From the NCBI RefSeq assembly GCF_004010195.1, contig NC_057755.1, positions 9,589,306 through 9,648,931 of the forward strand: 59,626 bases of DNA. Direction: 5' to 3'. The position numbers and the translations under genes were made by a program. Positions within the stretch are counted from its first letter, which is position 1; every line of letters starts with the position of its first letter. Source of the stretch: Chiloscyllium plagiosum. Its lineage: Eukaryota. Shown piece by piece: positions 8,380-37,467 of this stretch. Below the pieces are notes generated by a model. It saw only the letters and a list, made by a program, of their open reading frames with translations, did no database searches and had not been told where the DNA came from.

Positions 8380-9630
8380 TAGAATGACGTTGGATGAGGG
8401 CGTGTAGCAAACTCTGAATGACTGGATCCAAAGTCCTGATCAATCTGTTTATTTCACGACGGCTACGCTCTTTGGTCGAATCAGCCAGTTGTTGCCTGTA
8501 TTTTTTCCTCGTTGTTCAGTTGTTTGTACTCTTCCAGGTAGTAATCTGTTCCATTCTGAATTACGATTGCTCCTCGGTTACCTGCTGGTTTGATGACTAC
8601 GTTGTGTTTTGTTTTGAGAGCATGGATGGCTTTGCCTTGTGATCGGGTGATGTTTTACTCCATCTTGTGAGTGTGGCCGATGAATCTAGCATTTATATAT
8701 AACCTGACGGTTTAAGCATAAATGTCAAGCGGAGGGCAGCAGCCCTCCGGTGGAGTCCACGTTGATCCCTCCTTTGGTTGCCTATGTTCTGATCCCTGTG
8801 ATGATTGCTCTGGTTCCGCAGTGGGCTCATTGGCATCACTGCTGGCATCTTGAATGAATTTCCGGAGCCTAATTCGTCTGATAAATTTCTTTGTGTCTGC
8901 AGCAAGACCCATGGAACCATTTTTGTGGTGAAGCAGAAATTGTGACCCCTGCTAAGAACTACAATCCCTTCTGGTTAGTGGGTGTGGTCCAATAATTTGG
9001 CAATCAATTTCCCGTGGTAATAACATTTTCCACTTTGCTGCCAGAGCGGGCATGGCTACTGCTGGTGGTGATGCCACGTTTATTCAGTTTCTTGCCCACG
9101 GAGTTCATGCACATCGTGTACTTTTGTCATTTTGCCTGTTTGCCAATATCCCATAAGTATAGTGCTTATCATGAGTGAAGGCTGAGAGTGTGGACTCCAT
9201 CTGAATTTCAAGGTTGCGGCAGTAGAATTGGCGCACAAGACGATTGAGGAGTTTAGGAAAGGTGCAATGGCAAAGTCTTTCCATGTAGTCTGTGTTGTTG
9301 GTCGACTTGAGTGGGTTCGTGATCGGTCATCCTTCTGGCATCTTTTCTGCTGTCCTGCATTTCTGTTGAACCTTGATGTCTGCGTCGATATGTGCGATAT
9401 TCTTGTAGATACTCTCCACTTTGATCCGACAGTTAGTGGTGTCAATGATAGCCAGAATTTGTAGTTGCCACTGTGTGACTCGGGTATACAAAGTTAACAA
9501 TCACACAACACCAAGAATAATCCAACAGGTTTATTTGGACGCTCTAGAATTCGGAGCACTGCTCCTTCTTCAGGTGGTAGTGGAGTATAGGATCGTAAGA
9601 CACAGAATTCATCGCAAAAGATTACCGTGA
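8380..9630 (-). mobile_element. 5' part of a second Penelope-like family (terminal repeat with degenerate hammerhead plus N-terminal ORF)
   Basis: The minus strand encodes KKFIRRIRLRKF, STWTPPEG and HNVVIKPAGNRGAIVIQN (equivalent to IKPADKGGA). 9485-9620 matches the arms of the 14183-14620 palindrome, including cctgaagaaggagcagtgctccgaat on the minus strand. Confidence 0.8.
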
Positions 9631-9649
9631 GAGCATATAACGATAATCG

Positions 9650-14149: not shown

Positions 14150-14152
<3 letters not shown>

Positions 14153-14182
14153 GAGCAGTTAAAATTTCTTCAGGAAACATGA

Positions 14183-14620
14183 TTTGGAGATGCCGGTGTT
14201 GGACTGGGGTGTATAAAGTTAAAAATCACACAACACCAGGCTACAGTCCAACAGGTTTAATTGGAAGCACACTAGCTTTCGGACCGACGCTCCTTCATCA
14301 GGCGATTGTGGAGGGCTCAATCGTAACACAGAATTTATAGCAAAACTTTGCAGTGCGATGTAACTGAAATTAGACATTGAAAAATTGATTGTCTATTAAG
14401 CCTTTCACCTGTTATAACAGATGACAAATGAACGGCTGAACAGACAATCAATTTTTCAATGTATAATTTAAGTTAAATCACACTGCAAACTTTTGCTATA
14501 AATTCTGTGTTAAGATCGAGCCCTCCACAATCACCTGATGAAGGAGCGTCGCTCCGAAAGCTAGTGTGCTTCCAATTAAACCTGTTGGACAATAACCTGG
14601 TGTTGTGTGATTTTTAACTT
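14183..14620. mobile_element. Palindromic non-autonomous Penelope-derived element with a hammerhead motif on each strand
   Basis: Inverted arms of about 200 bp (14216-14413 and 14416-14620) centred on ctgttataacag; a 33-bp unpaired tail at 14183-14215; direct repeat cttcaggaaacatga at 14168-14182 and 14618-14632. Confidence 0.9.
14531..14567 (+). ncRNA. Minimal type I hammerhead ribozyme motif (PLE-associated)
   Basis: CTGATGA 14535-14541, stem II ggagcg/cgctcc, GAAA 14556-14559, palindromic AGCT stem III, CUA triplet, stem I cac/gtg. The mirror copy is on the minus strand at about 14268-14305. Confidence 0.75.
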
Positions 14621-14670
14621 CAGGAAACATGACTCTGATAATCATGACTCTGTTTATCTTGTCCGTAACT

Positions 14671-14692
14671 AGGGACAGATTGCTCTATAAAT
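14671..14692 (+). promoter_or_regulatory. TATA-containing promoter box of the GPCR pseudogene
   Basis: agggacagattgctctataaat is identical to 32694-32715 and lies about 76 bp upstream of the mutated start codon. Confidence 0.7.
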
Positions 14693-14768
14693 TTAGAACA
14701 TTCGCTGCCCTCAGATATATTGCAAAAGAAACATTCAATCTGGATATCTTCCAAATATTCTTCACGGA

Positions 14769-14836
14769 ATATTGCAGCCAATTATTCTACAGATCAGGGC
14801 AATTTATCACCAATTCTGGCACATTCAGAATTTGCG
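14769..14836 (+). pseudogene. Exon 1 of a GPR139/142-like GPCR pseudogene
   Basis: ATA TTG CAG CCA ATT ATT CTA CAG aligns with ATG GTG CAG CCA ATA ATT CTA CAG at 32791. The start is ATG>ATA, the frame shifts, and the donor appears to be gtatgt>ggatgt. Confidence 0.75.
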
Positions 14837-14949
14837 GGATGTGGAGGTGGCAGTAGAGTTCGTCGTTTTTCCTGAAGACCTGAGACAAATAGGTTGTTTC
14901 AAGGATCAGTTCGATATCCATAGCTGTTGTAAACTAATTTCAAAAGTAT

Positions 14950-15860
14950 GCATGAGAATATAGGAGGCATGGTGAGTACATTGGAGGATGACATGAAAAT
15001 TAGTCGCACAGGAGAGAGTGAAGAAGGTTATCTAAACGTCCAACGAGGTCTTCAACAGCTTGACCAGTGAGAAGAGAAGTGGTAAATGGAATTTAGTAAA
15101 GATAAATACAAGGCGTTGCATTTTTGTAAGGCAAATAGAGGCAGGACTGACACAGCTAATGGTCGTTCTGGGGGAGTATTATTGGACAGAGAGACTTTGA
15201 GATGCACCTAAGTATTTCCTTGAAAGAGACATTACATGTGGGCAGGATGGTGACAAAAGGCGTTTGGCAAGTTTGCCTTCACTAGTCAGACCACTGAATA
15301 AAGATTGCGGGGTGTCATGTCGTGAATGTGCAGGGCACTGTTGATGCCACTTTTGAAATACTGTGCATAATTCCACTCGCTCTGCTTTCGGTAAGATGGT
15401 GCTATACTACAATGATGGATAAAATATTTCAAGATGTTGCTGAAAATGCAGGGTTTGAGATATAAGGACGGACTCGATAGTCTATGCCTTTTTTTCCGAA
15501 AAAGTTCGGAGATTGAGGGGGTCACCTTCTCGACGTATATAAAATCATGACAGCATTGATAATTTAAATGCAAAGGTGCGTAAAGGGCAAAGTTTTAATG
15601 TGAGAGGCAAAGATTTAAAAGGAACCAGATGGACATTTTTCACAAAACCGTTGGGTCATGGCTGGAATGCCAGTGGAAGTGGTGGGTAAGGGCACAATTA
15701 TCACATTTAAGAGACATTTCGTCAGGTAAATGAACAGGAAAGGTTTAGAAGGATATGGAACAGAAACAGCCAAATGAGACCAGGTAGGTCTGGGACATTC
15801 TGTTAGCATGGAGGTGTTGGACCAAAGGATGCAATTCTGTGCTGTATGACTCTGAGTCTA
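14950..15860 (+). mobile_element. Old CR1 3' fragment in the pseudogene intron
   Basis: Begins just before a degenerate FADD motif (gaggatgacatgaaaatt) and ends in a ctgtatgactct tail. Confidence 0.75.
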
Positions 15861-16242
15861 TGGCTCCAACCTCTGAATGGTTAGACAGCAGAAAGAGGTG
15901 TCTGACAGAGTTTCTATCAACGTGCCCAGTGAATAGGATGGTATTTGGTAGCGACAGAGAAAACAGTATTTCACCACATATCACAGATAACCTATAATAA
16001 GGACAAGTCACGGTATACTTTGATCAGTTTAATAGTTGAAAACATTTAAATGGAAGACGCTGAAATCAAGCCAAACTTACTGTCTCTCTATCCTGAGTAC
16101 TCCATGCGCTGTTATACCATCATGGCATTTCCAAAATGCATGTGCATTTAAGTAGTGCCATTGGGTATTTTGTCAGAAGATAACTTACTTTTCTTCTCTG
16201 TGTGATCCTGTGTTTTATAAATTTTCTTTGTTTGAATTGCAG

Positions 16243-16436
16243 CCAACCTACCCTTTTCTCCTTCTACGCCCATCTACGTGGTCGCCATGGCTACCACCCT
16301 TCTTCTGATGATAAATTTCAATTTGCATCACATTTTCAGTTTTCATTTTACACATGCCTTTTTCCCCTACACGAGATTTTATTAATTTGTTATCTACGTG
16401 AGCGCTGTCAACCTGAACATGGCAGTATAGTTCACT
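16243..16436 (+). pseudogene. GPCR pseudogene exon 2, 5' part (TM1 end to TM3)
   Basis: Acceptor ttgcag|CC AAC CTA. YVVAMATTLLL, HHIFSFHF and AVNLNMAV*FT align with ORF 36562-37467, with deletions and stops. Confidence 0.85.
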
Positions 16437-19510: not shown

Positions 19511-21449
19511 CAAAAGTCACATTTCAACCTTCTTGTCTGTAAGGAAAACAGTCATAAATCCCTCATACTTGCCTCATAAGACTTTCCCTCCAAACCAGGC
19601 AACATCAAAGTAAATCTCATCTGAACACTTTCGAAACCTTCCACTTCCTTTCCATAATGCTGCGACCAGAACAGTAAGCAATACTCCAAGTGCAGCCCCA
19701 CCGGAGTTTCCTCCAGCAATAACTCTTGATCTGTGGTATATAGCTATCCATCTTCATCGCTAAATTAAACATAACCGAACTGCAGTAACTATTACCAAAG
19801 TGTTCACCGACCTCCAAATTTAACCCTGGCCAGGTTCATTACCCGGTACCAAATCCAATGTGGTCTCGTCTCTTGTTGGCCCACAGTCAACGATCCTGCA
19901 CGGATTGGATTAAAACAAACACCAATCTAAAGTACTTGAACTACAGTATTTTCAGTCTTTATTTGTAATGTTCAAGTCTCTGATAACAATCTGCCTGTTA
20001 CTCTCGCTCTTATCCAGAATTATCTTTGCTATCATTTTCTCTGCATTTCAGAAACTATTCGGCGGTCTGTAGAATACTTCCCACAGGGTGACCTCTCCTT
20101 TTCTGTTTCTAACATCAGCACATACTACCGCAGTAGACGAGATTTCAAACATTCCTCCTGCTACTGTAATACTGTCCATGACTAATAATGGCACACACCT
20201 CCCGCTTTTCTCATCTTCTTTGTTCTTACTGAAACATCTAAATCGTGGAATTTGCAACAACAAGTCCAGTCCTTGCTCTACTCATGTCTGTGAAATGGCC
20301 ACAACATCAAAATCCCAGGTTCCAATCCGTGCTGCAAGTTCAACCACCTTATTTTGGATGCTCCTGGTGTTGAAATCGACACATTTCCAATAACCTTCCT
20401 GTTTGCTGATGAAAACTTCAACCTTGAAAACATGTTTCTGATCTCGCTACTCTCAAGCTCCCGGATACTGGAACTACGACTTAGGTTCCCATGGCCCTGC
20501 TGAATTAGATTAAATCCTGTTGAATCGCATTGGCTTCGTCAGTTTGTAAGAGGTCCAACCTACCATAGAATGAGCCTCAATTATTCAGGTATCCGGAGCT
20601 CTCCCTCCTTCTCCATCTCTGTAGCCACATGTTCATCTGTTCTCTCTTCCCATTCCTCGCCTCTCTCGCACGTGGCACAGGCAACAATTCTGAGATAGCA
20701 ACTTTGTTTATTCCAGCACTAAACTTGCACCCAAGCTCCATGAATTTCAGGAGCTCCAAGCTTATGAAATCCCCATCCTTGTTCTAAATATATTGCCAGT
20801 AGCTCTTTCGACCAGGACTTGTGGTTGCACCCCCGCCCCCTCAAGGATAAATAAAACAGAGACGTCATGAACCCTAGCACTGGGAGGCAACACACCAACG
20901 GTGAGACTCTCTCGTTCCCACAGAACCTACTATCTGTCCCCCTAACTATGGAATCCCTAATGACTAATGATCTGCTCATCTCTCCTCCCCCCAAAAAAGT
21001 ATCCAAAACGGTATATTTGTTATTGAGGGCAAGTGCAACAAGGGTTCCCTGCACTGCCTGCGGGTTCCCTTGACGTCCCCTGACAGTAACCCACTTGCCT
21101 TTTTCTTCTCCTGACGTGTGGCTAAAGTCTTGTAACTCCAGCTTTGCTTGGGTTCGAGGATCTCCAGTTGGGTGCACTTCCCACTGAATAAGCCAGCAGG
21201 GACACGAGTGGTGACCCTTACCTCTCGCATTCTGCAGGAGGAAAGCTCAACTGCCCTAACTTCCATCCACACTGTTCTAAATTCCGAAAGAGAATGTAGT
21301 AAAGTAAAAAATAAATAAAAACAAAAACTAGTTATTTTATCAATCCAGCGCATAGATCGTTTTTGTTTTGTGGTTAGAATGAATGGCAGACACTACCTTT
21401 GTAGTGTTTCGTGTAAGGCAACCAATGAAATATACTACTTCACTTACTG

Positions 21450-21669
21450 GAGAAAGTGAGGTCTGCAGATGCTGGAGATCAGAGATGGAAATGTGTTGCT
21501 GGAAAAGCGCAGCAGGCCAGGCAGCATCTAGGGAACAGGAGAATCGACGTTTCGGGCATTAGCCCTTCGGGCATTCCTGAAGAAGGGCTAATGCCCGAAA
21601 CGTCGATTCTCCTGTTCCCTAGATGCTGCCTGACCTGCAGCGCTTTTCCAGCAACACATTTCCATCTCT
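21450..21669. mobile_element. Short palindromic Penelope-derived mini-element with a hammerhead motif
   Basis: Near-perfect inverted arms across 21481-21669; 31-bp tail 21450-21480; direct repeat ctacttcacttactg at 21435-21449 and 21668-21682. Confidence 0.9.
21573..21610 (+). ncRNA. Minimal hammerhead ribozyme motif
   Basis: CTGAAGA 21577-21583, stem II gggc-taat-gccc, GAAA 21597-21600, palindromic ACGT, GUC triplet. Confidence 0.75.
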
Positions 21670-22089
21670 ACTTCACTTACTGACCAGTCCCATGTCCCTT
21701 TCTGCTCAACCTGCTCTCCGGTATTCACGAGGTAAGTTTATATGATTTTAAATTTACCTTCCTGGTAGTCTCCTGGTCCTCATAGTGGCTTCCTACAATG
21801 TGGCTGCTACTGGCAAAATGGAGATCGCGGAACACACGAGGTTAATTCATATAATTTTAAATTTGCATTCCCAGCAGATCCCTTGACCTCGCTGTTACTC
21901 CTCCTATTGCTACTGCTACTGCAAAAGTGGAGTTGGAAAAGAAGATATCAAGGTGGGTAACAGACCAGCATGGGGTGACAAGGTGGAGTGCGTGTGTTGG
22001 AGGTGGAAGAAGGGGTCTTCGGTGTGTCAGCGGGAATCTCGATGAAAAAAGTGGGCTCAGAAACAGAGGCAGTGGGAAAAAAGAACCTA

Positions 22090-22428: not shown

Positions 22429-23156
22429 CAATTGTTCAAAGTCACAGCGTGAACCAAACTCATTAATCCAGAAGCGTAGTGAGATGAAGGTGATGCCTTT
22501 GTTGAGGACTGATCGTTCATCCATAGTAAGGGTAACTTCTGGGAAAATTGCGAAAAATCGGCTGAACTGGGACTTCGACCTGGTGGGGGGTTGGAGCTGG
22601 GGGTAAGGGGGGGAACCACCACCGAAGTGGGCGTGGTTAAAGAATCGAGTATGACATTGTCAACTGAAGTGTCACTCACCACAGGGAGCAGAAGTGATCC
22701 CTCCAGTGGTGCCTGCAGGGCGCAAGTGACATAAAGTATGACAAGTATGACATCAACAATGTCGCCGGCAGAGCTCAGCGATGTCACTGAGGCAGAAGTG
22801 GGTCCACCAGCAACTGTGGGGTCGGTAGTAAAGTACAAGGTACATATCACGTCAGTTCTGGCAGCAGTGGATCTCGCTGTAGTAGTGGCGGTCGTAGACC
22901 CTGCAGCGGTAGTGAAGGTGGCTGTCTTCCTGGTGATCTGGAGCTGGTTGTCTGGACAGTGATTGCGGAGTCTGTATGGTCGACAGTGGCTGCGGTCTGA
23001 GGGGGGTCAGCGGGCATGACGTTTTCATTAGCCGCTGCGGTTGTGGCCAAAGCAGTCACATGGCTAATGGCTCCTTGGATGCTGCCTGATTTGTTGTGCT
23101 TTTCCAGCATCACACTCTCGAATCGGATCTCCATCATCTGCAGTCCACACTTTCTC

Positions 23157-23800
23157 GTGGTGTAGTTCACTGTCTTGTTCATGTTTGATCTAGATGCAGC
23201 CATATGTTGTGAGAATCTGAAAGCAAAGAATTGCAGCTGGAGGACGATATCAGCAACTATATTTAACAACACTGCTGTGGTTTACCGTGTGAAAATAACT
23301 TTTTGTTTTTCATATGAATCTGAACAAGTAATAGAACATGTCCAGTTTGATTTTTTTTTTCTTTTCCAGCAGGTGCAGCATTCTCCTGGATGCAAAGTAC
23401 CTGAACTGTTTGTCTTCCATTTTGTTTGGTATTCTTGAGCAATTCCTTGACAGTCATACGTATTGTAGTCGCCAAAATAGCTCGCAGGGCCATCCGTGTG
23501 TGCAAAAGGGAAGGGGAGAATCGAAGGAAGTTCCTTACTTTACTCTTCGTGAAATTGGGCAACTTTATTGTTCTGTGAATGACACTAGCTACAAGGGCAA
23601 TAGACACTGCAAGTTATCAAAGTGATTATGCAGCTCATGCCTACATTTTCAGTGAATCAGGCTTTATGTTCACGTCATTAAATTCATGTACCAACGAGTG
23701 CATTTATGCAAACTACACAATACATATATTCAGGCAAGAGGTGAAGAAAGTATTGACATCTGCTTCGCCGTGTATTCTTGTATTAGTTAAGCGAAATTAA
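23157..23800 (+). pseudogene. GPCR pseudogene exon 2, 3' part (TM3 to C-terminus)
   Basis: *FTVLFMFDLDAAICCENLKAKNC, AGAAFSWMQST*TVCLPF and ATRAIDTASYQSDYAAHAYIFSESGFMFTSLNSCTNECIY...FRQEVKKVLTS align with ORF 36562-37467. AATAAA at 24062-24067. Confidence 0.9.
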
Positions 23801-24169
23801 AAGTGATAAATGTCATATACCTTGGCTGAATGTGTTGTCCTGTCTCAGAAAATTATCATGAAGTGATCTGAATCACTTGCATTTCACATTCCTCAGTTAA
23901 AATCTGAATGGTTGAAAAAAATGATGAAAACTGTGTATAATTGCATACCGTTTCTTAGAAATTATGTTCGATGTCTTGTGTGAAGTTACATGATGGAATT
24001 TTTTCGCATTTTCTGTGCACCATGCAAATTTACCAGAAATGCAGGGGCAAGATTCTGCTCCAATAAACTCAGACACTCTGGTGGTCAGAAAGGGAATGAA
24101 CAGATTTTGTTAGGTCTCTCTGCCATGCTGCGCAGTTCATGGATCTCCAACAGATGAAAAACTGATTGA

Positions 24170-28330: not shown

Positions 28331-30116
28331 TTAAAGGCAAGTGCAAGTTTTTTTTTTGCAATGCAGATGTGCTTTTATTGCTCAAACTATTGCTTTGAGC
28401 AAATCACACTTTATTCTTACACTGTAGTGAAAATGCAAACCGTTGCGGAGAGGTATCGAAGAGCCGTCTTGAAACCTGTTTTCAGAAGTAAAATCAATCG
28501 TTATTCTAGCTCTTTTTGCCAATCGTGCAGGAAAGGCCACAGAGCACTCTGAACCTGTCTTTGATGTGGGGCCAAGTTGACCTCCTAATATCTGACTCAC
28601 ATCAGAAGAGAGATCTGTGTAGCTCTCGTGTCCCCAATAGGATACATGATTTTTAAACATTTCAAGTTATAGTAATTACATGCAACATTGGGATCGTTTC
28701 TACCCGCACCCCCCCCCCCCCCCCCCCCCCCCCACCAATCTATGCTTCCATTGCTGTAAATCACCGGATCGATGACGGGCACCCCTATGGATAATCCACT
28801 ACGGGTTTCCAGGCATCATGATACAAGGCCTGCGATCTTTCATTGCATCCCATTAATTCACATTCCAAAGTTAACGGTTTTACTCTTTTTTTCAGTATTT
28901 CCCCTGACTTGCTTACCTGTAAGGGACGTTCAAATTCTATGGTACATTATGATAATTGCAATCTCTGTCAAATTATGTTGTTCATCTTTCTTTAAAACTA
29001 CAAATCACAGGAGAATCAAAGGGACGTTAGTTCTTACTAATTGCTGTAAGATTCATAATAATGCATCTGCTGAAAATTTAGTTTTATATAAAGTTTGATG
29101 TTTGCACCTACTGTCAGAATTCTTTAACTAAAATATTGTGTGCGGCTTCTGTTCCACCTGACCTTCGAGGTTCATTTAGACACTCTTCCTCTACTTTGCA
29201 GAGGCATAACTCAATCTATTCACATGCTGCTTTATTTGACGAAATATACTACCTTTCCGCTGATTTAAACAGAAGAGACACAACAAACAGTGAGACAAAC
29301 TGTCGTACATATGATAATAAGGAAAAGACAAACACATAACCTCAACACCAAGGAGAGGGAAGCACTGAAATCACTAAGAAACGATAAGAACATAATCATA
29401 CTACCAGCAGATAAAGGCAAAATGACGGTCATCCTAGATAAATCTGATCACATCCAAAAAGCACAACAACTACTTGCAGATATCAACACCTACCAAATGA
29501 AGGAATTTGACCCCACACCACAACTCACCAATAGGATAAATAACACACTAAGGAATCTACAAAAAAACGGACAGATAACCAGAGCTGACCTACAAAGAAT
29601 GAAACCGGAAAGCAACAACACCCCCAAATTCTATGGATTACCTAAAGTACACAAACCAGACATCCCACTCAGACCCATCGTATCACTGCCAGGGACATCA
29701 TCATACAAACTGGCCAAAGAATTACAACAGAAACTGAAACACCTGGTCAGCGGATCCAAACACTCGATACAATCAACACAGGAATTCTTGGACATCATCA
29801 GAAATATACACATGTTCAAAGAAGAAACCATGATATCATTCGACGTGACGGCACTGTTCACTTCGATTAACAAAACCCTAGCCAGAGAAACAATAGCCAA
29901 ACTACTGGACGTACAGAACAGAAAACAGGACGCTGAACCTATCAACAAAGAAGGCATACTTAAACTACTGGACTTGTGCCTCACAACACACTTCACATTC
30001 AACAACCAGATATACGAACAAATCAACAGAACACCCATGGGATCACCAATCTCGGGACTCATAGCAGAGGCAGTTATGCAAAGGTTAGAACAAACAATCC
30101 TACCACAAATTCAACC

Positions 30117-30479
30117 NNNNNNNNNNNNNNNNNNNNNNNNNNNNNNNNNNNNNNNNNNNNNNNNNNNNNNNNNNNNNNNNNNNNNNNNNNNNNNNNNNNN
30201 NNNNNNNNNNNNNNNNNNNNNNNNNNNNNNNNNNNNNNNNNNNNNNNNNNNNNNNNNNNNNNNNNNNNNNNNNNNNNNNNNNNNNNNNNNNNNNNNNNNN
30301 NNNNNNNNNNNNNNNNNNNNNNNNNNNNNNNNNNNNNNNNNNNNNNNNNNNNNNNNNNNNNNNNNNNNNNNNNNNNNNNNNNNNNNNNNNNNNNNNNNNN
30401 NNNNNNNNNNNNNNNNNNNNNNNNNNNNNNNNNNNNNNNNNNNNNNNNNNNNNNNNNNNNNNNNNNNNNNNNNNNNNNN
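30117..30479. other. Assembly gap (363 N)
   Basis: Run of N. Confidence 1.
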
Positions 30480-30928
30480 AGGTTTTTGTTGCAAACGTTT
30501 CGTCCCCTGACTAGGCGACATATCAGTGCTTGGGAGCCTCCTTCGAAGCGCTTCTTTGGTGTTTCCTCCGGTGTTTATAGTGGTCTGTCCCTGCCGCTTC
30601 GGTTGTCAGTTTCAGCTGTCCGCTGTAGTGGTTGGTATATTGGGTCCAGGTCGATGTGTTTGTTGATGGTGTTTGTGGATGAATGCCATGCCTCTAGCAA
30701 CATGAATTCGACTGGGACAACACTACTATCATAGGGCAAGCCAGACAGAGAACAGCCAGGGAATTCCTAGAGGCATGGCATTCATTCACAAACTCCATCA
30801 ACAAACACATCGACCTGGACCCAATATACCAACCACTACAACGGACAGCTGAAACTGACAAGCGGCAGGGACAGATCACTATAAACACCGGAGTAAACAT
30901 CAAAGAAGCGCTTTGCAGGAGGCTCCCA

Positions 30929-30970
30929 AGCACTGATGATGTCGCCGAGCCAGGGGACGAAACGTTTGCA
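30929..30970 (+). ncRNA. Minimal hammerhead ribozyme motif in the PLE terminal repeat
   Basis: CTGATGA 30933-30939, stem II gtcgcc...ggggac, GAAA 30959-30962, palindromic ACGT, stem I gca/tgc. The minus-strand copy at about 30490-30530 has a 1-nt deletion in the core. Confidence 0.7.
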
Positions 30971-31649
30971 ACAAAAACTTCCAGCTCGGCGAACAGAACC
31001 ACAACAACGAGCACCCGAGCTACAAATCTTCACACAAACTTTGATTTAAACTTCTCTTTTTTACCATAACTCAACATTGTTAAGCCGACACTCTGCCACC
31101 GGAAATAAAGTTACAACTTTGCCAAACCCATCGATAGTAAGTCAACATGTGAAAGCACAACAGACCATAACAGTCATCAAAGTCGACATTCCGAAGGAGA
31201 GATACATGCTTTCAGCATAATGCCTGCCATATTACCCGTGAAATAAAATAAATCTAAGTCCTGCTCAGCTTGAGTACGTATGGACATAACAATTTATAAA
31301 CTATGCGCGGTACCAAAACTTCCAGACATCTTTAGATTTCACCCCCATTCAGAGATCATTGCTGTCCATTTGTGTTTAGAATTTCTCATTCAAATACACC
31401 TCTCCTCTTATCTAACTCACCCCCAAAAACCAGTTCATTGGTTTTCCTGAGAAGAATGTATCTACCCTTTCCTTTAAACTATGTAATGAGCTCAAATCCA
31501 TTGTGTTCAGAGACAGAAAGTTTAAAGGTCAAACAATACACAGAGATAATAAAAGGTTACTGAAGCTTTATTCGTCAAGGATTCTTAATTTCCAAACAGT
31601 GGTCAATGGTTCTGGACTGATCTACAACATGAATCGTCTACACGAACAA

Positions 31650-32380: not shown

Positions 32381-32693
32381 AGGCTTCAATTTTTTTGTGA
32401 GGTTGCATGATAAACAAATGATAAATACTTTGGTTTAAATTCATGTAATCATTAGAACTGAAAGAATCCAATACAATAAATGAGAACAATAAACTGTTTC
32501 TATTCCTCCTGGCATGTTCCAATCATTTTTGTTCTGTAATGTTATTCCAATTGTTCATTATCGTGAAAGGCGTACTTGTTATTAAGCTGCGTAACCTCCT
32601 CATGGACAAGGTGGGTGAAGTGGAGCAGTTAACACCTCTTCAGACAATGTAACTCTGAAAATGTTGCAAGATGTTTATTTTTTTCCCTCAAAC

Positions 32694-32715
32694 AGGGACA
32701 GATTGCTCTATAAAT
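32694..32715 (+). promoter_or_regulatory. TATA-containing promoter box of the intact GPCR gene
   Basis: TATAAAT at 32709-32715, 75 bp upstream of ATG 32791; 22/22 identical to the paralogous box. Confidence 0.7.
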
Positions 32716-32790
32716 AGGCAACATAACTGCACTCAAATGCAATGCACGTGAAGCCACCAATCCGGACATATTTCAGACTTTCTTCTGAGA

Positions 32791-32854
32791 ATGGTGCAGC
32801 CAATAATTCTACAGATGAAAATAATTTACTACCCTATTCTGTCTGGCATTCCTG
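32791..32854 (+). CDS. GPR139/GPR142-like class A GPCR, exon 1 (MVQPIILQMKIIYYPILSGIP, phase-1 intron)
   Basis: ATG after the TATA box, IYYPIL start of TM1, donor G|gtatgt. G plus CG from exon 2 makes Ala and restores the frame of ORF 36562. Confidence 0.8.
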
Positions 32855-32974
32855 GTATGTTAGTAATTTAGAAGCATTGGAGAATTCTAATCATGAGGTT
32901 GGAGGCCATTGACAAACAATCTGCTGCATGGATTGGATTTGTTCCTTGTTGAATGTCATTTATTTCAATGCTTT

Positions 32975-33800
32975 GAATATGACAATATGAGGGATGGCTA
33001 TCACTTGGTGGATGACACTAAAATTGGTGTTAGAGTGAGAGCGAAGAAGATTTTCTCAATGTCCATCAACTTGGTTCTCCATCATATTGGTCAGTGGGAC
33101 AAGAAGTGGCAAATGCTATTTTAATAAGTTAAATGAAAATGTGCTGCATTTTGGTACTGCAAAGCAGGGTAGGACTTGGATAGTTAATGGTGGGGGAATG
33201 TTAGTGAACAGAGTTACCTTGGGGTGCAGTACAATATGTCCTCAAAGGTTGCGTTGCATGTAGATGTGGTGTGAGGAAGACATCTATCATGTTTGCTTTT
33301 GCTGGTCAGAATATTTAATATAGACGTTGCAATGGCATGTTGGAGCTCTAGTCGATGATGTCACATATGAAATAATGTAAACAATTCTGTTCACTCTGTT
33401 AAAGAACAGAGTACTTAAACTGGGGAATTCAACTAAAAAGAAGGAAGGAAATTGCTGGATTTGCAGAGTATCAATTATATGGAGAAGCTGGTTAGTTTCG
33501 GGCATTACCTTCCCTGCAGCCCAGAAGGCTGAGGGCTGACCTTGTAGAAATTTATATAATTATCAAGTATTTCAATACAGTAAATACCAAAGGCCTTTTA
33601 CAAGTGTACGGCACTCCTAAACTGGAGGGAGCTGTTTAAAGTGAGGAGGAAAAATTTAAAGGCACCTTACGAGCAATTGTATCACAGAGATGGTAGTTCA
33701 TGCATGGAATGAGCTACTACTGGATTTAGTGGAGGTATGTACAATTATACCATTTAAAAGGCATTTGGCATAGATACATTATTAGGAAATATTTAGAAGG
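32975..33800 (+). mobile_element. Old CR1 3' fragment in the GPCR intron
   Basis: LVDDTKIG...IGQWDKKWQMLF in ORF 32909-33124; same position and start point as 14950-15860. Confidence 0.75.
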
Positions 33801-34036
33801 AAAATGTAATCTCAGTTGTCAGAATTGTACTTGCATTAGAGACAACAGAAAGCAATCTGCATACATCAATGTCATTGGAAAATGATGAAGGCATGATGGC
33901 CACGATCCTTCAGCTTGTGGAAATAGCTTATTTCTTTCGCTTTGATTTCTCTATCAAGTAGACTATTAAGTAGATTCTCATTGTTTGAGAATAAAATGGG
34001 AAGAATCACATATGATTAGTTTTAAATCTTTAGACT

Positions 34037-34165
34037 GGGAGAAAGTGAGTACACTAAATGCTGGAGATCAGAGTCGAGGGTGTGGTGCTGGAAAAATAGA
34101 GCAGGTCAGGCAGCATCCGAGCAGCAGAAGAATTGATATTTCTGGCATCATCCCTTCTTCAGGAA
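34037..34165 (-). mobile_element. Half copy of the PLE terminal repeat with a degenerate hammerhead
   Basis: gagaaagtgag...gctggagatcagag...gcaggtcaggcagcatc...cccttcttcagga matches the left half of 21450-21669. Confidence 0.7.
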
Positions 34166-34419
34166 GGGCAATACTCAGATTATGTTGACTTCATTTTTTT
34201 AATTTTTTCCCTGCGAAGGTAATATTCAGATAGAGTCATAGAGTCATAGAGATATCCAGCATGGAAACAAACGATTCGGTTCAACCCGTCCATGCCGACC
34301 ACATATACCAACCCAAACTAGTCCCACCTGCCAGCACCTGGCCCATAACCCTCCAAACCCTTTTTTTTAGTGTTTATTTAGAATGAAACATTTCTGATAT
34401 ATGAATTGTTTGATCATGG

Positions 34420-35790
34420 GTTATTATAGGCCAGTGAAACTGACATCGATGGTGAGGAAATGCTAGAATCAATTGTCAAGCATGAAATAACTGAGTCATT
34501 CTGAGTCAGCATGGATTCGCTGAAGGGAAATTATGCTTTACAAATCTTCAGATTTTTTTGAGTCTTTGACCAGTAGCTTAGACAAAACTGTATTTGGACT
34601 TTCAAAAGGCTTTTGACAAGGTTCCACGCTTGAGATTATTAAGGAAAATTAAAGCTCATGGCATCGGCGGTAATGCATTGACATGGATAGAGAAGTGACT
34701 GCCAGACAAGATGCAGAGATCTGGAAACTGCGGGTCCTTTTCAGAGTTTCAGGCAGTGACGAGTGGTGTGCCACAGGGGTCAGCATTCAGACCTCAGCTG
34801 CTCAGAATATGCATTATTGATTTGGATGAAGGAATTGAAACTCATATCTCCAAAACTTTTTGATGATATTGAGCTCTGTGGAAGATGAAGTTAAAATTCA
34901 CAGAACATCAGTGTATTCTCCATCAGGTTTATTTGGAGTACACAGTTTAGCAAAGATGCTCCTTCGTCGTGTAGCTCGGTAATCAGGAGAATAAAGAGGC
35001 TGCAGGATTAAATGAACAGGGCTGGCTAAATGGACAAATACTTGGCAAACGCAATGTCATGAGGATTATACAAATTCGTTGCAAAACAGGAAGGCGAATT
35101 ATGATATGAATGGAAGAAGTTCAGGAAATGGTGGAGTGCAACGAGACCTGTGTGTTACGGTGGAACACTCATTGAAGATTGGCATGTCGGTGCAGCAGGC
35201 AGTAAAGAAAGCTCCTGGCATGATCTCCTTCATTGCAAAACGATTTGAGTATCGGAGTAAGAACATCTTGCCGCCCTTATCCTGGTTCTTGGTGAGACCA
35301 CACCTTGAGTATAGTGTGCAGTTTTGGACTCCTAGTCTGAGGAAGGACATTCTTGTTTCTGAGGGAGTCCAGCAAAAGTTCGCCTTTCACATAAATTTCG
35401 CAGAATGAGCAGGGAGTCTTACCGAAACATACAAATTCCTGATGCGATCGCACAGGCTAGATGCAGGAAGAAAGTTTCCGATGTTGGGCATGTCCAGAAT
35501 TAGGGATAAGTGCCTAAGAATAAGGGAAAAAAATCTATTCAGGACTGATAGGAAGAAGAATTTCTTCACTCAGACAGTTTAAAACTGTGAAATTCCTTAC
35601 TCAGCAAATTGATGGGTGCAGTTGATAAGATATATTCAGGAGGGAGTGGGAGGTGGCCCTTGCAGCTAATTCGATCAACGAGTATGTAGAGAGGGTGGTA
35701 ATGGGGCACTGAGATTGCATGATCAGCCATGACCGCATTGAACGGTGGTGCAGGCACTGAAGGTCGCATAGCCCACTCTATTTTCTAGGT
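34420..35790 (+). mobile_element. Degenerate CR1 LINE RT/3' end
   Basis: cagcatggatt (QHGF), gactttcaaaaggcttttgacaaggttcca (DFQKAFDKVP) and LVRPHLEYSVQFW. Confidence 0.85.
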
Positions 35791-36553
35791 TTTTGTTTGT
35801 TTTTTATCAGTTCCCACAATATTCTGATATTGTTATTCAAAATCAAACGTCCAGTTTGGAGCCATTGTGTTCAAGTTTTATGTTAAATGAATCATTCATT
35901 TTGTGCTGAGTTAAGCATAAGAAAATGAGCACTGATTTGCCTGTCAGTCTCCATGTTATTATTATTTTAAAATTAAACATTTAATGACCATACTTAACTG
36001 ACAATAGGGCAGATAAGTGTCACCCTTACTACTGTAGGTCTGGATTGGTATGTAGGCCAGACCAGATTGGGATGGCAGTTTCCTTCCATGAACGATATTA
36101 GTGAAGCAGGTGGGTTTTTAAGACAATCGAGAATTGTTTCGTGGCTATCAATAGTCTCTTCAACCCACACTTTTTATTGAAGTGAAGTTCGACCATCTGA
36201 TGTGATTGGATTTGAATCTGGGTTCCACATTATTGCTTCTGTCTCTGCTTTATCTGTCCAGTAATAACACCTCGTGTCTATCATGAGTATTATGGATAGC
36301 TTCTAGCGTATGCTTTGATCGATGTAGTAGTTCAAACAAATTAATAGTGGATGCTGAAATCAAGCCAATCTTTCAGCCTTGCTATTCTGAGTATCCTAAG
36401 GTTATCACAGGATGGAGTTTCCAAAGCGCATATGCATTTTATTGAGAATGTCATTATACAGAAGACTGAGTAGCAATGTCATTGGATATTTTGGAAAAAA
36501 AAATTGTTTTCCAACTGACCCTGTTTTGTAACTTTTCTTCATTTGACTCACAG

Positions 36554-37467
36554 CGAACCTGGTGCCGATAATAATTCTCACAAGGGGAAACTGCGGCCTT
36601 TCTGATTGTACCTCTGCCTACATGCTGGCCATGGCAGCTGCAGCTCTTCTGATCATGATCGTGAATGTAACTGTGCATCATGTGTTCAGTTTTCATTTTA
36701 AACATTCCATCCTATCGTACACTGGAGTTTGTAAGTTTATCATCTTCATAAACTCAGCCAACCTGTACCTAGCAGTTTGGTTCACAGTCTTGTTCACATT
36801 TGATCGCTATGTAGCTATATGCTGTGAGAGGCTGAAAACAAAATATTGCATATTGAGGACTGGAGCTGCAGTAATAATGGTCACCACTGCTGTGGTTATC
36901 CTTGGAAATATACCCAATTTGTTTGCTTGTGAACCTGAGAAAATAATTGATAATTTACAGTGGGGTTGCCGCACTAAGATGAACTTCTTCACATCTCTCG
37001 CGGGTGTAGCATTCTCCTGGCTACAAAGTGTTTTGATTGTTTGTCTTCCATTTGCTTTCATTTTAATGTTTAATTTCGTGACAGTCAGACGCATTGTAGT
37101 AGCCAACAGAGGGCGCAGGGCAATCCGGGGATGCAGTAGTGAGAGTCAAAAAGATCCAGCTGTGCAGAGTCGAAGAAAATCCATTATTTTATTCTTTGCG
37201 ATATCGGGTAGTTTTATTCTTCTGTGGCTGACAGCAGCCACAAACTTTTTAGCAACAAGGATAGCAAACACTGCACGATATCAAGGTGATTATGCAGCTC
37301 CAGCCTACATTGCCACTGAAATAGGCTACATACCCATGTACTTCAATTCGTGTACAAATGTGTACATTTATGCAGCCGTACAAAGTAAATTCCGACAAGA
37401 GCTGAAGAAAGTGTTGACATCTTCATGGTCAAGTGTCATGCTATTGGTTAATCGAAAGGAAAAGTGA
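36554..37467 (+). CDS. GPR139/GPR142-like class A GPCR, exon 2 (spliced product about 325 aa)
   Basis: Acceptor ctcacag|CG AAC CTG; open frame with hydrophobic TM segments, RGNCGLS, FTFDRYVAIC, LPF, RRKSIILFFAISGSFILLW and NSCTNVYIY...SKFRQE; AATAAA at 37727-37732. Confidence 0.9.

Follow-up and report, generated by a model that had tools for sequence, protein, structure and literature searches.

The window analyzed here is a 59,626-nt stretch of Chiloscyllium plagiosum DNA that contains a tandem cluster of rhodopsin-family GPCR genes or pseudogenes (14671-16436, 23151-23803, and 32694-37467) that have a promoter block in common and a short first exon; within this cluster, 36547-37467 is an open 7tm_1 frame of 306 aa. 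Upstream of the first GPCR copy, at 14168-14632, is a palindromic insertion bounded by a target site duplication (TSD). The promoter block of this copy starts 39 nt, and its TATAAA 54 nt, after the right TSD, in agreement with the distance of about 50 bp given in a first-pass annotation of this DNA, and its GPCR-like exon remnant at 16242-16436 contains stops and frame breaks. The features of the insertion and of the related sequences in the window are as follows.

14168-14182, no strand: left TSD, 15 nt, present as a single copy in the paralogous promoter
14178-14182, minus strand: 5-nt overlap between target and template, reading TCATG on the sense strand
14183-14215, minus strand: Penelope tail, 33 nt, on one arm only, corresponding to the consensus of the loose ends behind 14620 in family contigs
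14216-14414, minus strand: left arm, assigned to the last ~200 nt of the pseudo-LTR, with the minus strand as sense strand
14270-14304, minus strand: minimal type I hammerhead motif with a stem II mismatch at 14284, predicted cut after 14273
14409-14420, no strand: head-to-head junction, a perfect palindrome of 12 nt; the two arms share their first family base
14415-14620, plus strand: right arm, assigned to the pseudo-LTR end without the tail, with the plus strand as sense strand
14532-14566, plus strand: minimal type I hammerhead motif, intact, predicted cut after 14563
14618-14632, no strand: right TSD, of which 14618-14620 also extend the arm (microhomology)
14671-14691, plus strand: promoter block with TATAAA (14686) of the GPCR-like pseudogene, common to the paralogue at 32694
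8505-9632, minus strand: older relative, 75% identical, with a pseudo-LTR end and tail (9632-9457) leading into the N-terminal part of a decayed Penelope-like ORF
21435-21682: fold-back of another Penelope-type family, with a 15-nt TSD, a 31-nt tail, and arms of ~90 nt with unequal starts
30482-30978: inverted pair beside a Penelope-type reverse transcriptase (RT) ORF

The two copies of the TSD, CTTCAGGAAACATGA, were identical at 15 of 15 positions, and this sequence occurred exactly twice in the whole window. A direct repeat of this length was obtained in 1 of 500 dinucleotide shuffles of 14150-14900. The host promoter has a 15-nt tandem near-duplication of its own at 14625-14654, which overlaps the right TSD. 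When aligned without gaps, the arms (14216-14415 and 14421-14620) were complementary at 182 of 200 positions (91%), and none of the 18 differences between them formed a compensatory pair. A gapped alignment gave 184 identical positions of 199 and led to a spacer-free palindrome, CTGTTA/TAACAG, centred at 14414/14415; the right arm contains a 7-nt tandem duplication (14417-14423 and 14424-14430). The hairpin formed by both arms had a computed folding energy of -296.8 kcal/mol (z score, -34.9), and the 33 nt of the tail did not pair with the opposite arm. The distance between the TSDs was 435 nt, or 438 nt when the 3 nt common to the arm and the right TSD were counted, and no ORF of at least 100 aa overlapping the element was found in the ORF list of the window. 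The size of 438 bp, the inverted arms of about 200 bp, the unpaired 33-bp tail, the 15-bp target duplication, and the lack of coding capacity that had been reported from a first reading of the sequence were thus all recovered.

In the paralogous GPCR-gene promoter at 32623-32833, which is ~70% identical to the right flank, the left flank, a single copy of the target, and the right flank are contiguous. Contigs of three organisms (A, B, and C) were aligned to 14396-14960. For organisms B and C, the match of the single-copy flank contigs began precisely where the target does, at 14618, and the 43 and 263 letters that preceded it, respectively, did not match the arm, which is the sign that would be expected of an empty site. 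For organism A, another sample (X5) gave a flank contig that started 3 nt inside the arm and had 0 differences over 346 nt; this seems to be the sign of a filled allele, although it consists of two diagnostic letters only. Because the paralogue has the target once and the B and C contigs match from the start of the target, we regard the insertion, on sequence grounds, as real. The flank differed from that of B by 20 letters in ~290 and from that of C by 9 letters in 178; the insertion would have occurred soon after the splits from B and C, which fits the 9% mutual divergence of the arms.

The arms are identified by alignment as the last 200 nt of a Penelope-like pseudo-LTR. In the older relative, the region that follows the pseudo-LTR end and tail (9455-8505) matched P0011, an 881-aa RT/endonuclease protein, with 34% identity over 335 aa (E, 8e-38); this older copy is cut off by other sequence, and a further 76% identical fragment of the same lineage lies at 34885-34968. 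A HMMER search with the decayed neighbour ORF returned 16 proteins, and a word-indexed protein search with a 73-aa piece of that ORF returned two candidates, neither of which was significant. P0011 itself has an RVT_1 domain (E, 3.8e-10), DKG and YIDD motifs, a C-x4-C-x2-C linker at 743, and a YVGET endonuclease motif. The link from the insertion to a full RT/endonuclease is indirect, running via the 75% identical neighbour and not via the 14168-14632 copy itself. The tail contributed a connection of its own: its frame, VQHRHLQIM, was identical at seven of nine positions to the stretch of P0003 that leads up to and includes the Met, and likewise for P0005. Because this frame aligns to the Met of the ORF, the tail extends as far as the start codon, and template sequence also covers the last 5 nt of the left TSD. 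The ATG within these 5 nt (14178-14182) coincides with the parent ORF's start codon; the Ile-Met codons dictate four of the five overlap bases, and the remaining one is at a wobble position. Together, the tail frame and the neighbouring ORF matched proteins of Penelope-like elements (PLEs) and upheld the Penelope assignment that had been proposed for this DNA. The features of endonuclease-containing (EN+) PLEs found here were the pseudo-LTR identity, the one-sided 33-nt tail, the inverted 5'-truncated copy, and a TSD with an empty site. A zinc finger-like linker between the RT and the endonuclease is present in Neptune and also in Nematis (PMC8557442), and the linker of P0011, a 34% relative of the neighbour copy, points to one of these two groups; the parent element was probably of the Neptune type.

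Two minor observations concern these sequences. On the sense strand, 14216-14245 contains a branch-point-like TTTTAAC, a pyrimidine run, and a CAG before the start codon, resembling a 3' splice site, and the tail-less end falls beside this candidate site; introns in Penelope pseudo-LTRs have been described (PMC2377424). In addition, the predicted protein P0004 has butyrophilin-like Ig domains joined to the N terminus of this Penelope ORF, which is probably a gene-model fusion.

The numbers of contigs that matched one arm in the three organisms were 33,996, 49,248, and 41,786, and the parent Penelope-like family is thus very abundant. The summed contig depth, which is not a measure of copy number, dropped ~100-fold from the 3' end toward the centre. 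Among the 18 loose ends listed (of 718), 280, 284, and 736 contigs ended behind 14618, 14619, and 14620, respectively, in X5, and 414, 414, and 1,111 did so in X9; beyond these positions, the contigs listed continued either with the tail or with unrelated DNA. Since hundreds of contigs end at 14618-14620, the tail-less end is therefore a family-wide terminus, and family contigs end both with and without the tail. In the other direction, the family continues past the centre of the element, as seen from a loose end before 14424 in X9 (38 contigs; agreement, 0.81). Family motif scans of viral contigs, metagenome contigs, and prokaryote genomes found 0 loci.

A hammerhead motif had been claimed for the 3' arm of either strand, and motifs of the minimal, dimer-requiring type were indeed found at both positions. 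The predicted plus-strand motif (core at 14535) is complete, with a 3-bp stem I, CUGAUGA, an extra A, a 5-bp stem II with G10.1-C11.1, GAAA, an AGCU palindrome, and the predicted cut after 14563. In the minus-strand motif (core at 14301), stem II is broken by a G.G mismatch at 14284. With respect to the type I core, stems, palindrome at 15-16, and UH site, the plus-strand motif has all of them and the minus-strand motif differs by this one mismatch. A hammerhead descriptor, written post hoc, gave 3 matches in the window versus 0 in 100 shuffles. A search of Rfam gave no match to its hammerhead families at the gathering score or up to an E value of 10; the 21 weak sub-gathering matches to Rfam were to models of the microRNA, sRNA, and snoRNA types and mostly reflected the hairpin. 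Among the 40 family variants listed (of 95), those in the motif affected loop II, CpG sites, and position 17, and none fell in CUGAUGA.

The suggestion that the hairpin could mask the ribozyme was borne out by computed folding. In full-length transcripts of either strand, the cores were unpaired with a probability of 0.00, and each hammerhead is thus predicted to be fully masked by the other arm. Minimal hammerhead ribozyme (min-HHR) motifs cleave poorly and only as dimers (PMC4209133), and the computed active dimers lay 15 kcal/mol (plus strand, -17.7 versus -32.7 kcal/mol) and 17 kcal/mol (minus strand, -8.7 versus -26.1 kcal/mol) above the best folds. The claim of a working ribozyme in each polarity was not sustained, since the two hammerheads are one sense-strand motif duplicated by inversion, and both are paired to the other arm. 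One motif copied twice head-to-head is necessarily found once per strand by geometry. We infer that the hammerheads are passengers that are not needed for anything at this locus and that the element has no function.

The centre of the palindrome provides information on how the element was formed. At this point the family reads TT-CT-AA and the element reads TT-AT-AA. Because other copies continue there with the sequence TT-CT-AA, the starts of the two arms fall on one and the same base of the family, in a mini-palindrome of the template. Both arms also have the same minority family letter, at 14486 and 14350, as expected from one source, and both junctions have microhomology with the target, of 5 nt at the left, tail-bearing end and 3 nt at the right, tail-less end. 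Taken together, the above-described results make it highly probable that 14168-14632 is a dead, one-off product of Penelope-like insertion, consisting of an inverted truncated copy, a tail, and a TSD and reduced to two 200-nt ends.

The simplest order of priming and joining that we infer is two-end priming, to which we would give about an even chance. The GIY-YIG endonuclease would cut the two strands 15 nt apart, and each 3'-OH would prime reverse transcription on the pseudo-LTR RNA. The left 3'-OH would prime at the start codon through the 5-nt microhomology, which would generate the tail, and the right 3'-OH would prime 33 nt further in through the 3-nt microhomology, leaving this end without a tail. 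Both cDNAs would then stop at the TT-CT-AA mini-palindrome of the family, anneal or be joined, and be filled in. In vitro, a Poseidon protein cuts and extends both strands, with two RT start sites bounding the tail, and initiates reverse transcription at sites that are not homologous to the cut DNA (PMC11167929). The microhomology found here contrasts with this non-homologous initiation, a difference that one locus cannot settle. A second route, to which we assign a somewhat lower chance, is that a single cDNA folded back and primed itself at this mini-palindrome, as has been proposed for junction palindromes (PMC3846280). Fold-back fits the centre equally well, but a further step would be required for the product to end at the boundary of the tail. 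The mechanism that gives rise to Penelope inverted repeats with a one-sided tail is treated as still open in the field (PMC8557442, PMC11167929). As a single locus among very many Penelope stumps, the element is of little note. Its value lies in documenting the insertion reaction cleanly: the target was verified, both junctions have microhomology, the tail stops at the start codon, and the centre falls on a mini-palindrome of the family. Such measurements, made on thousands of copies in the genome, would separate two-end priming from self-priming fold-back.

We considered whether the element is instead a propagating, non-autonomous palindromic unit, the whole hairpin of which would be transcribed and re-inserted in trans by Penelope proteins, with a hammerhead in each polarity. 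Equal arm starts and a spacer-free, perfect centre would also be expected of a fixed palindromic unit, as would the minority letter shared by both arms at 14486/14350, although this letter is equally expected from the one template of a one-off event. Pseudo-LTR ends suffice for mobilization in trans (PMC3846280). The first-pass annotation had proposed such a mobile unit, and the contigs gave it no support. No contig lay on 14396-14414 or crossed the centre, where the depth was 0, in three of three contig runs; this test is weak, as the centre of the element's own locus was missed in X5 too, and it argues only against a large family with this same centre. Of the 15 joints listed (65 in total), 7 were between opposite strands, and these lay at 14424, 14453, and 14526-14533 and none at 14414/14415. 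Five of these seven, from three organisms, clustered at 14526-14533, 2-9 nt upstream of the hammerhead core; recurrent fold-back centres do therefore exist in the family for shorter units. The element was also the single copy in the 59.6 kb of the window, the two older relatives not being palindromic.

Also against such a unit, the cores are masked, stem II of the minus-strand motif is broken, and there is one motif per strand, although such motifs need a dimer (PMC4209133). RNA editing was examined as a possible trace of a transcribed stage. On its minus strand, the left arm (14241-14408) had 5 A-to-G and 0 U-to-C changes among the 40 variants listed (of 95), which would be compatible with editing (P = 0.06, post hoc); the other arm had no A-to-G excess on the same strand, and we did not accept editing as an explanation. 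The right arm had three C-to-A changes relative to the listed family letters. For these reasons, a propagating unit is unlikely. We consider it similarly improbable that the element is a founder or member of a palindromic family, perhaps A-to-I edited, whose masked hammerheads open only on unfolding by a protein or a second molecule. In viroid-like rod RNAs, ribozymes in both polarities serve the rolling-circle replication of a circular RNA, and a propagating unit would, if true, be a chromosomal, viroid-like ambisense ribozyme element. The rod-like fold and a hammerhead motif that can be read on either strand are shared with such RNAs, whereas the two motifs of the element, which lies in chromosomal DNA, are mirror images of a single motif, and a near-perfect duplex seals each of them.

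We judged it very unlikely that a one-off insertion has since acquired a regulatory role at the neighbouring GPCR gene, whether as a hairpin, a source of small RNA, or a promoter disruptor. The position of the element, 39 nt upstream of a promoter block that is conserved with the paralogue, is compatible with such a role, and RNA from read-through transcription would fold into a very stable hairpin. However, the GPCR copy is decayed, with stops and frame breaks in its exon remnant and loss of the first-exon ATG of the paralogue, the arms have drifted without compensation, and the element is upstream of the TATA box and hence outside the expected transcript. An assembly or amplification artefact from a chimeric fold-back read can be dismissed almost entirely: palindromes are a known artefact class and the centre is bridged by no contig, but the arms differ at 18 of 200 sites and by the 7-nt duplication, the TSD is exact on both sides with the target held once by the paralogue, and the flank contigs start 3 nt inside the arm in the organism A sample (0 differences in 346 nt) and at the TSD in B and C.

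The architecture of 14168-14632 is already in print. Published accounts include an inverted truncated copy with a 30-40 bp tail (Craig et al. 2021, PMC8557442), palindromes at inverted junctions with 8-10 bp TSDs in rotifers (Arkhipova et al. 2013, PMC3846280), opposite-strand min-HHR pairs 100-700 bp apart (Cervera and De la Pena 2014, PMC4209133), and inverted terminal repeats of variable size (PMC2377424). Head-to-head inverted pseudo-LTR ends, a one-sided tail near the ORF start, a TSD, and a junction palindrome are shared with the EN+ PLE insertions described in PMC3846280, PMC8557442, and PMC11167929. Compared to these insertions, the element has no ORF or third repeat between its arms, its TSD is 15 nt instead of the 8-10 of rotifers (PMC3846280), its tail ends at the start codon and not inside the ORF, and it has microhomology at both junctions where initiation in vitro was non-homologous (Frangieh et al. 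2024, PMC11167929).

The hammerhead motifs share with the metazoan PLE min-HHRs of PMC4209133 the CUGANGA core, the extra base before stem II, G10.1-C11.1, the palindrome at 15.1-16.1, the lack of a stem III loop, and the arrangement as an opposite-strand pair a few hundred bases apart. The Schistosoma min-HHRs have 7-8 bp in stem II and 4-5 bp in stem I, versus 5 and 3 bp in the motif predicted here (PMC4209133). Non-LTR retrozymes (Cervera and De la Pena 2020, PMC7229834; Li et al., bioRxiv 10.64898/2026.07.22.740005) are likewise non-coding, PLE-derived, and a few hundred bases long with a type I hammerhead, but they are head-to-tail tandems with at least two hammerheads on one strand, in contrast to the single head-to-head pair with one per strand here. 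An assignment to the retrozymes was rejected, the element having one motif per strand, head-to-head, and no tandem. A description of such an element or of its motifs in sharks was not found in the literature searched; the supplements of PMC4209133 and of bioRxiv 10.64898/2026.07.22.740005 may hold motifs from cartilaginous fish.

Two further fold-backs, of other Penelope-type families and with other arm lengths, were present in the window. The one at 21435-21682 has a hammerhead-like core at 21577 with an ACGU palindrome. The other belongs to a region (29269-31040) that comprises a Penelope-type RT ORF, an N gap (30117-30479), and the inverted pair at 30482-30978, which includes sequence of the endonuclease end and, at 30933, a minimal hammerhead.
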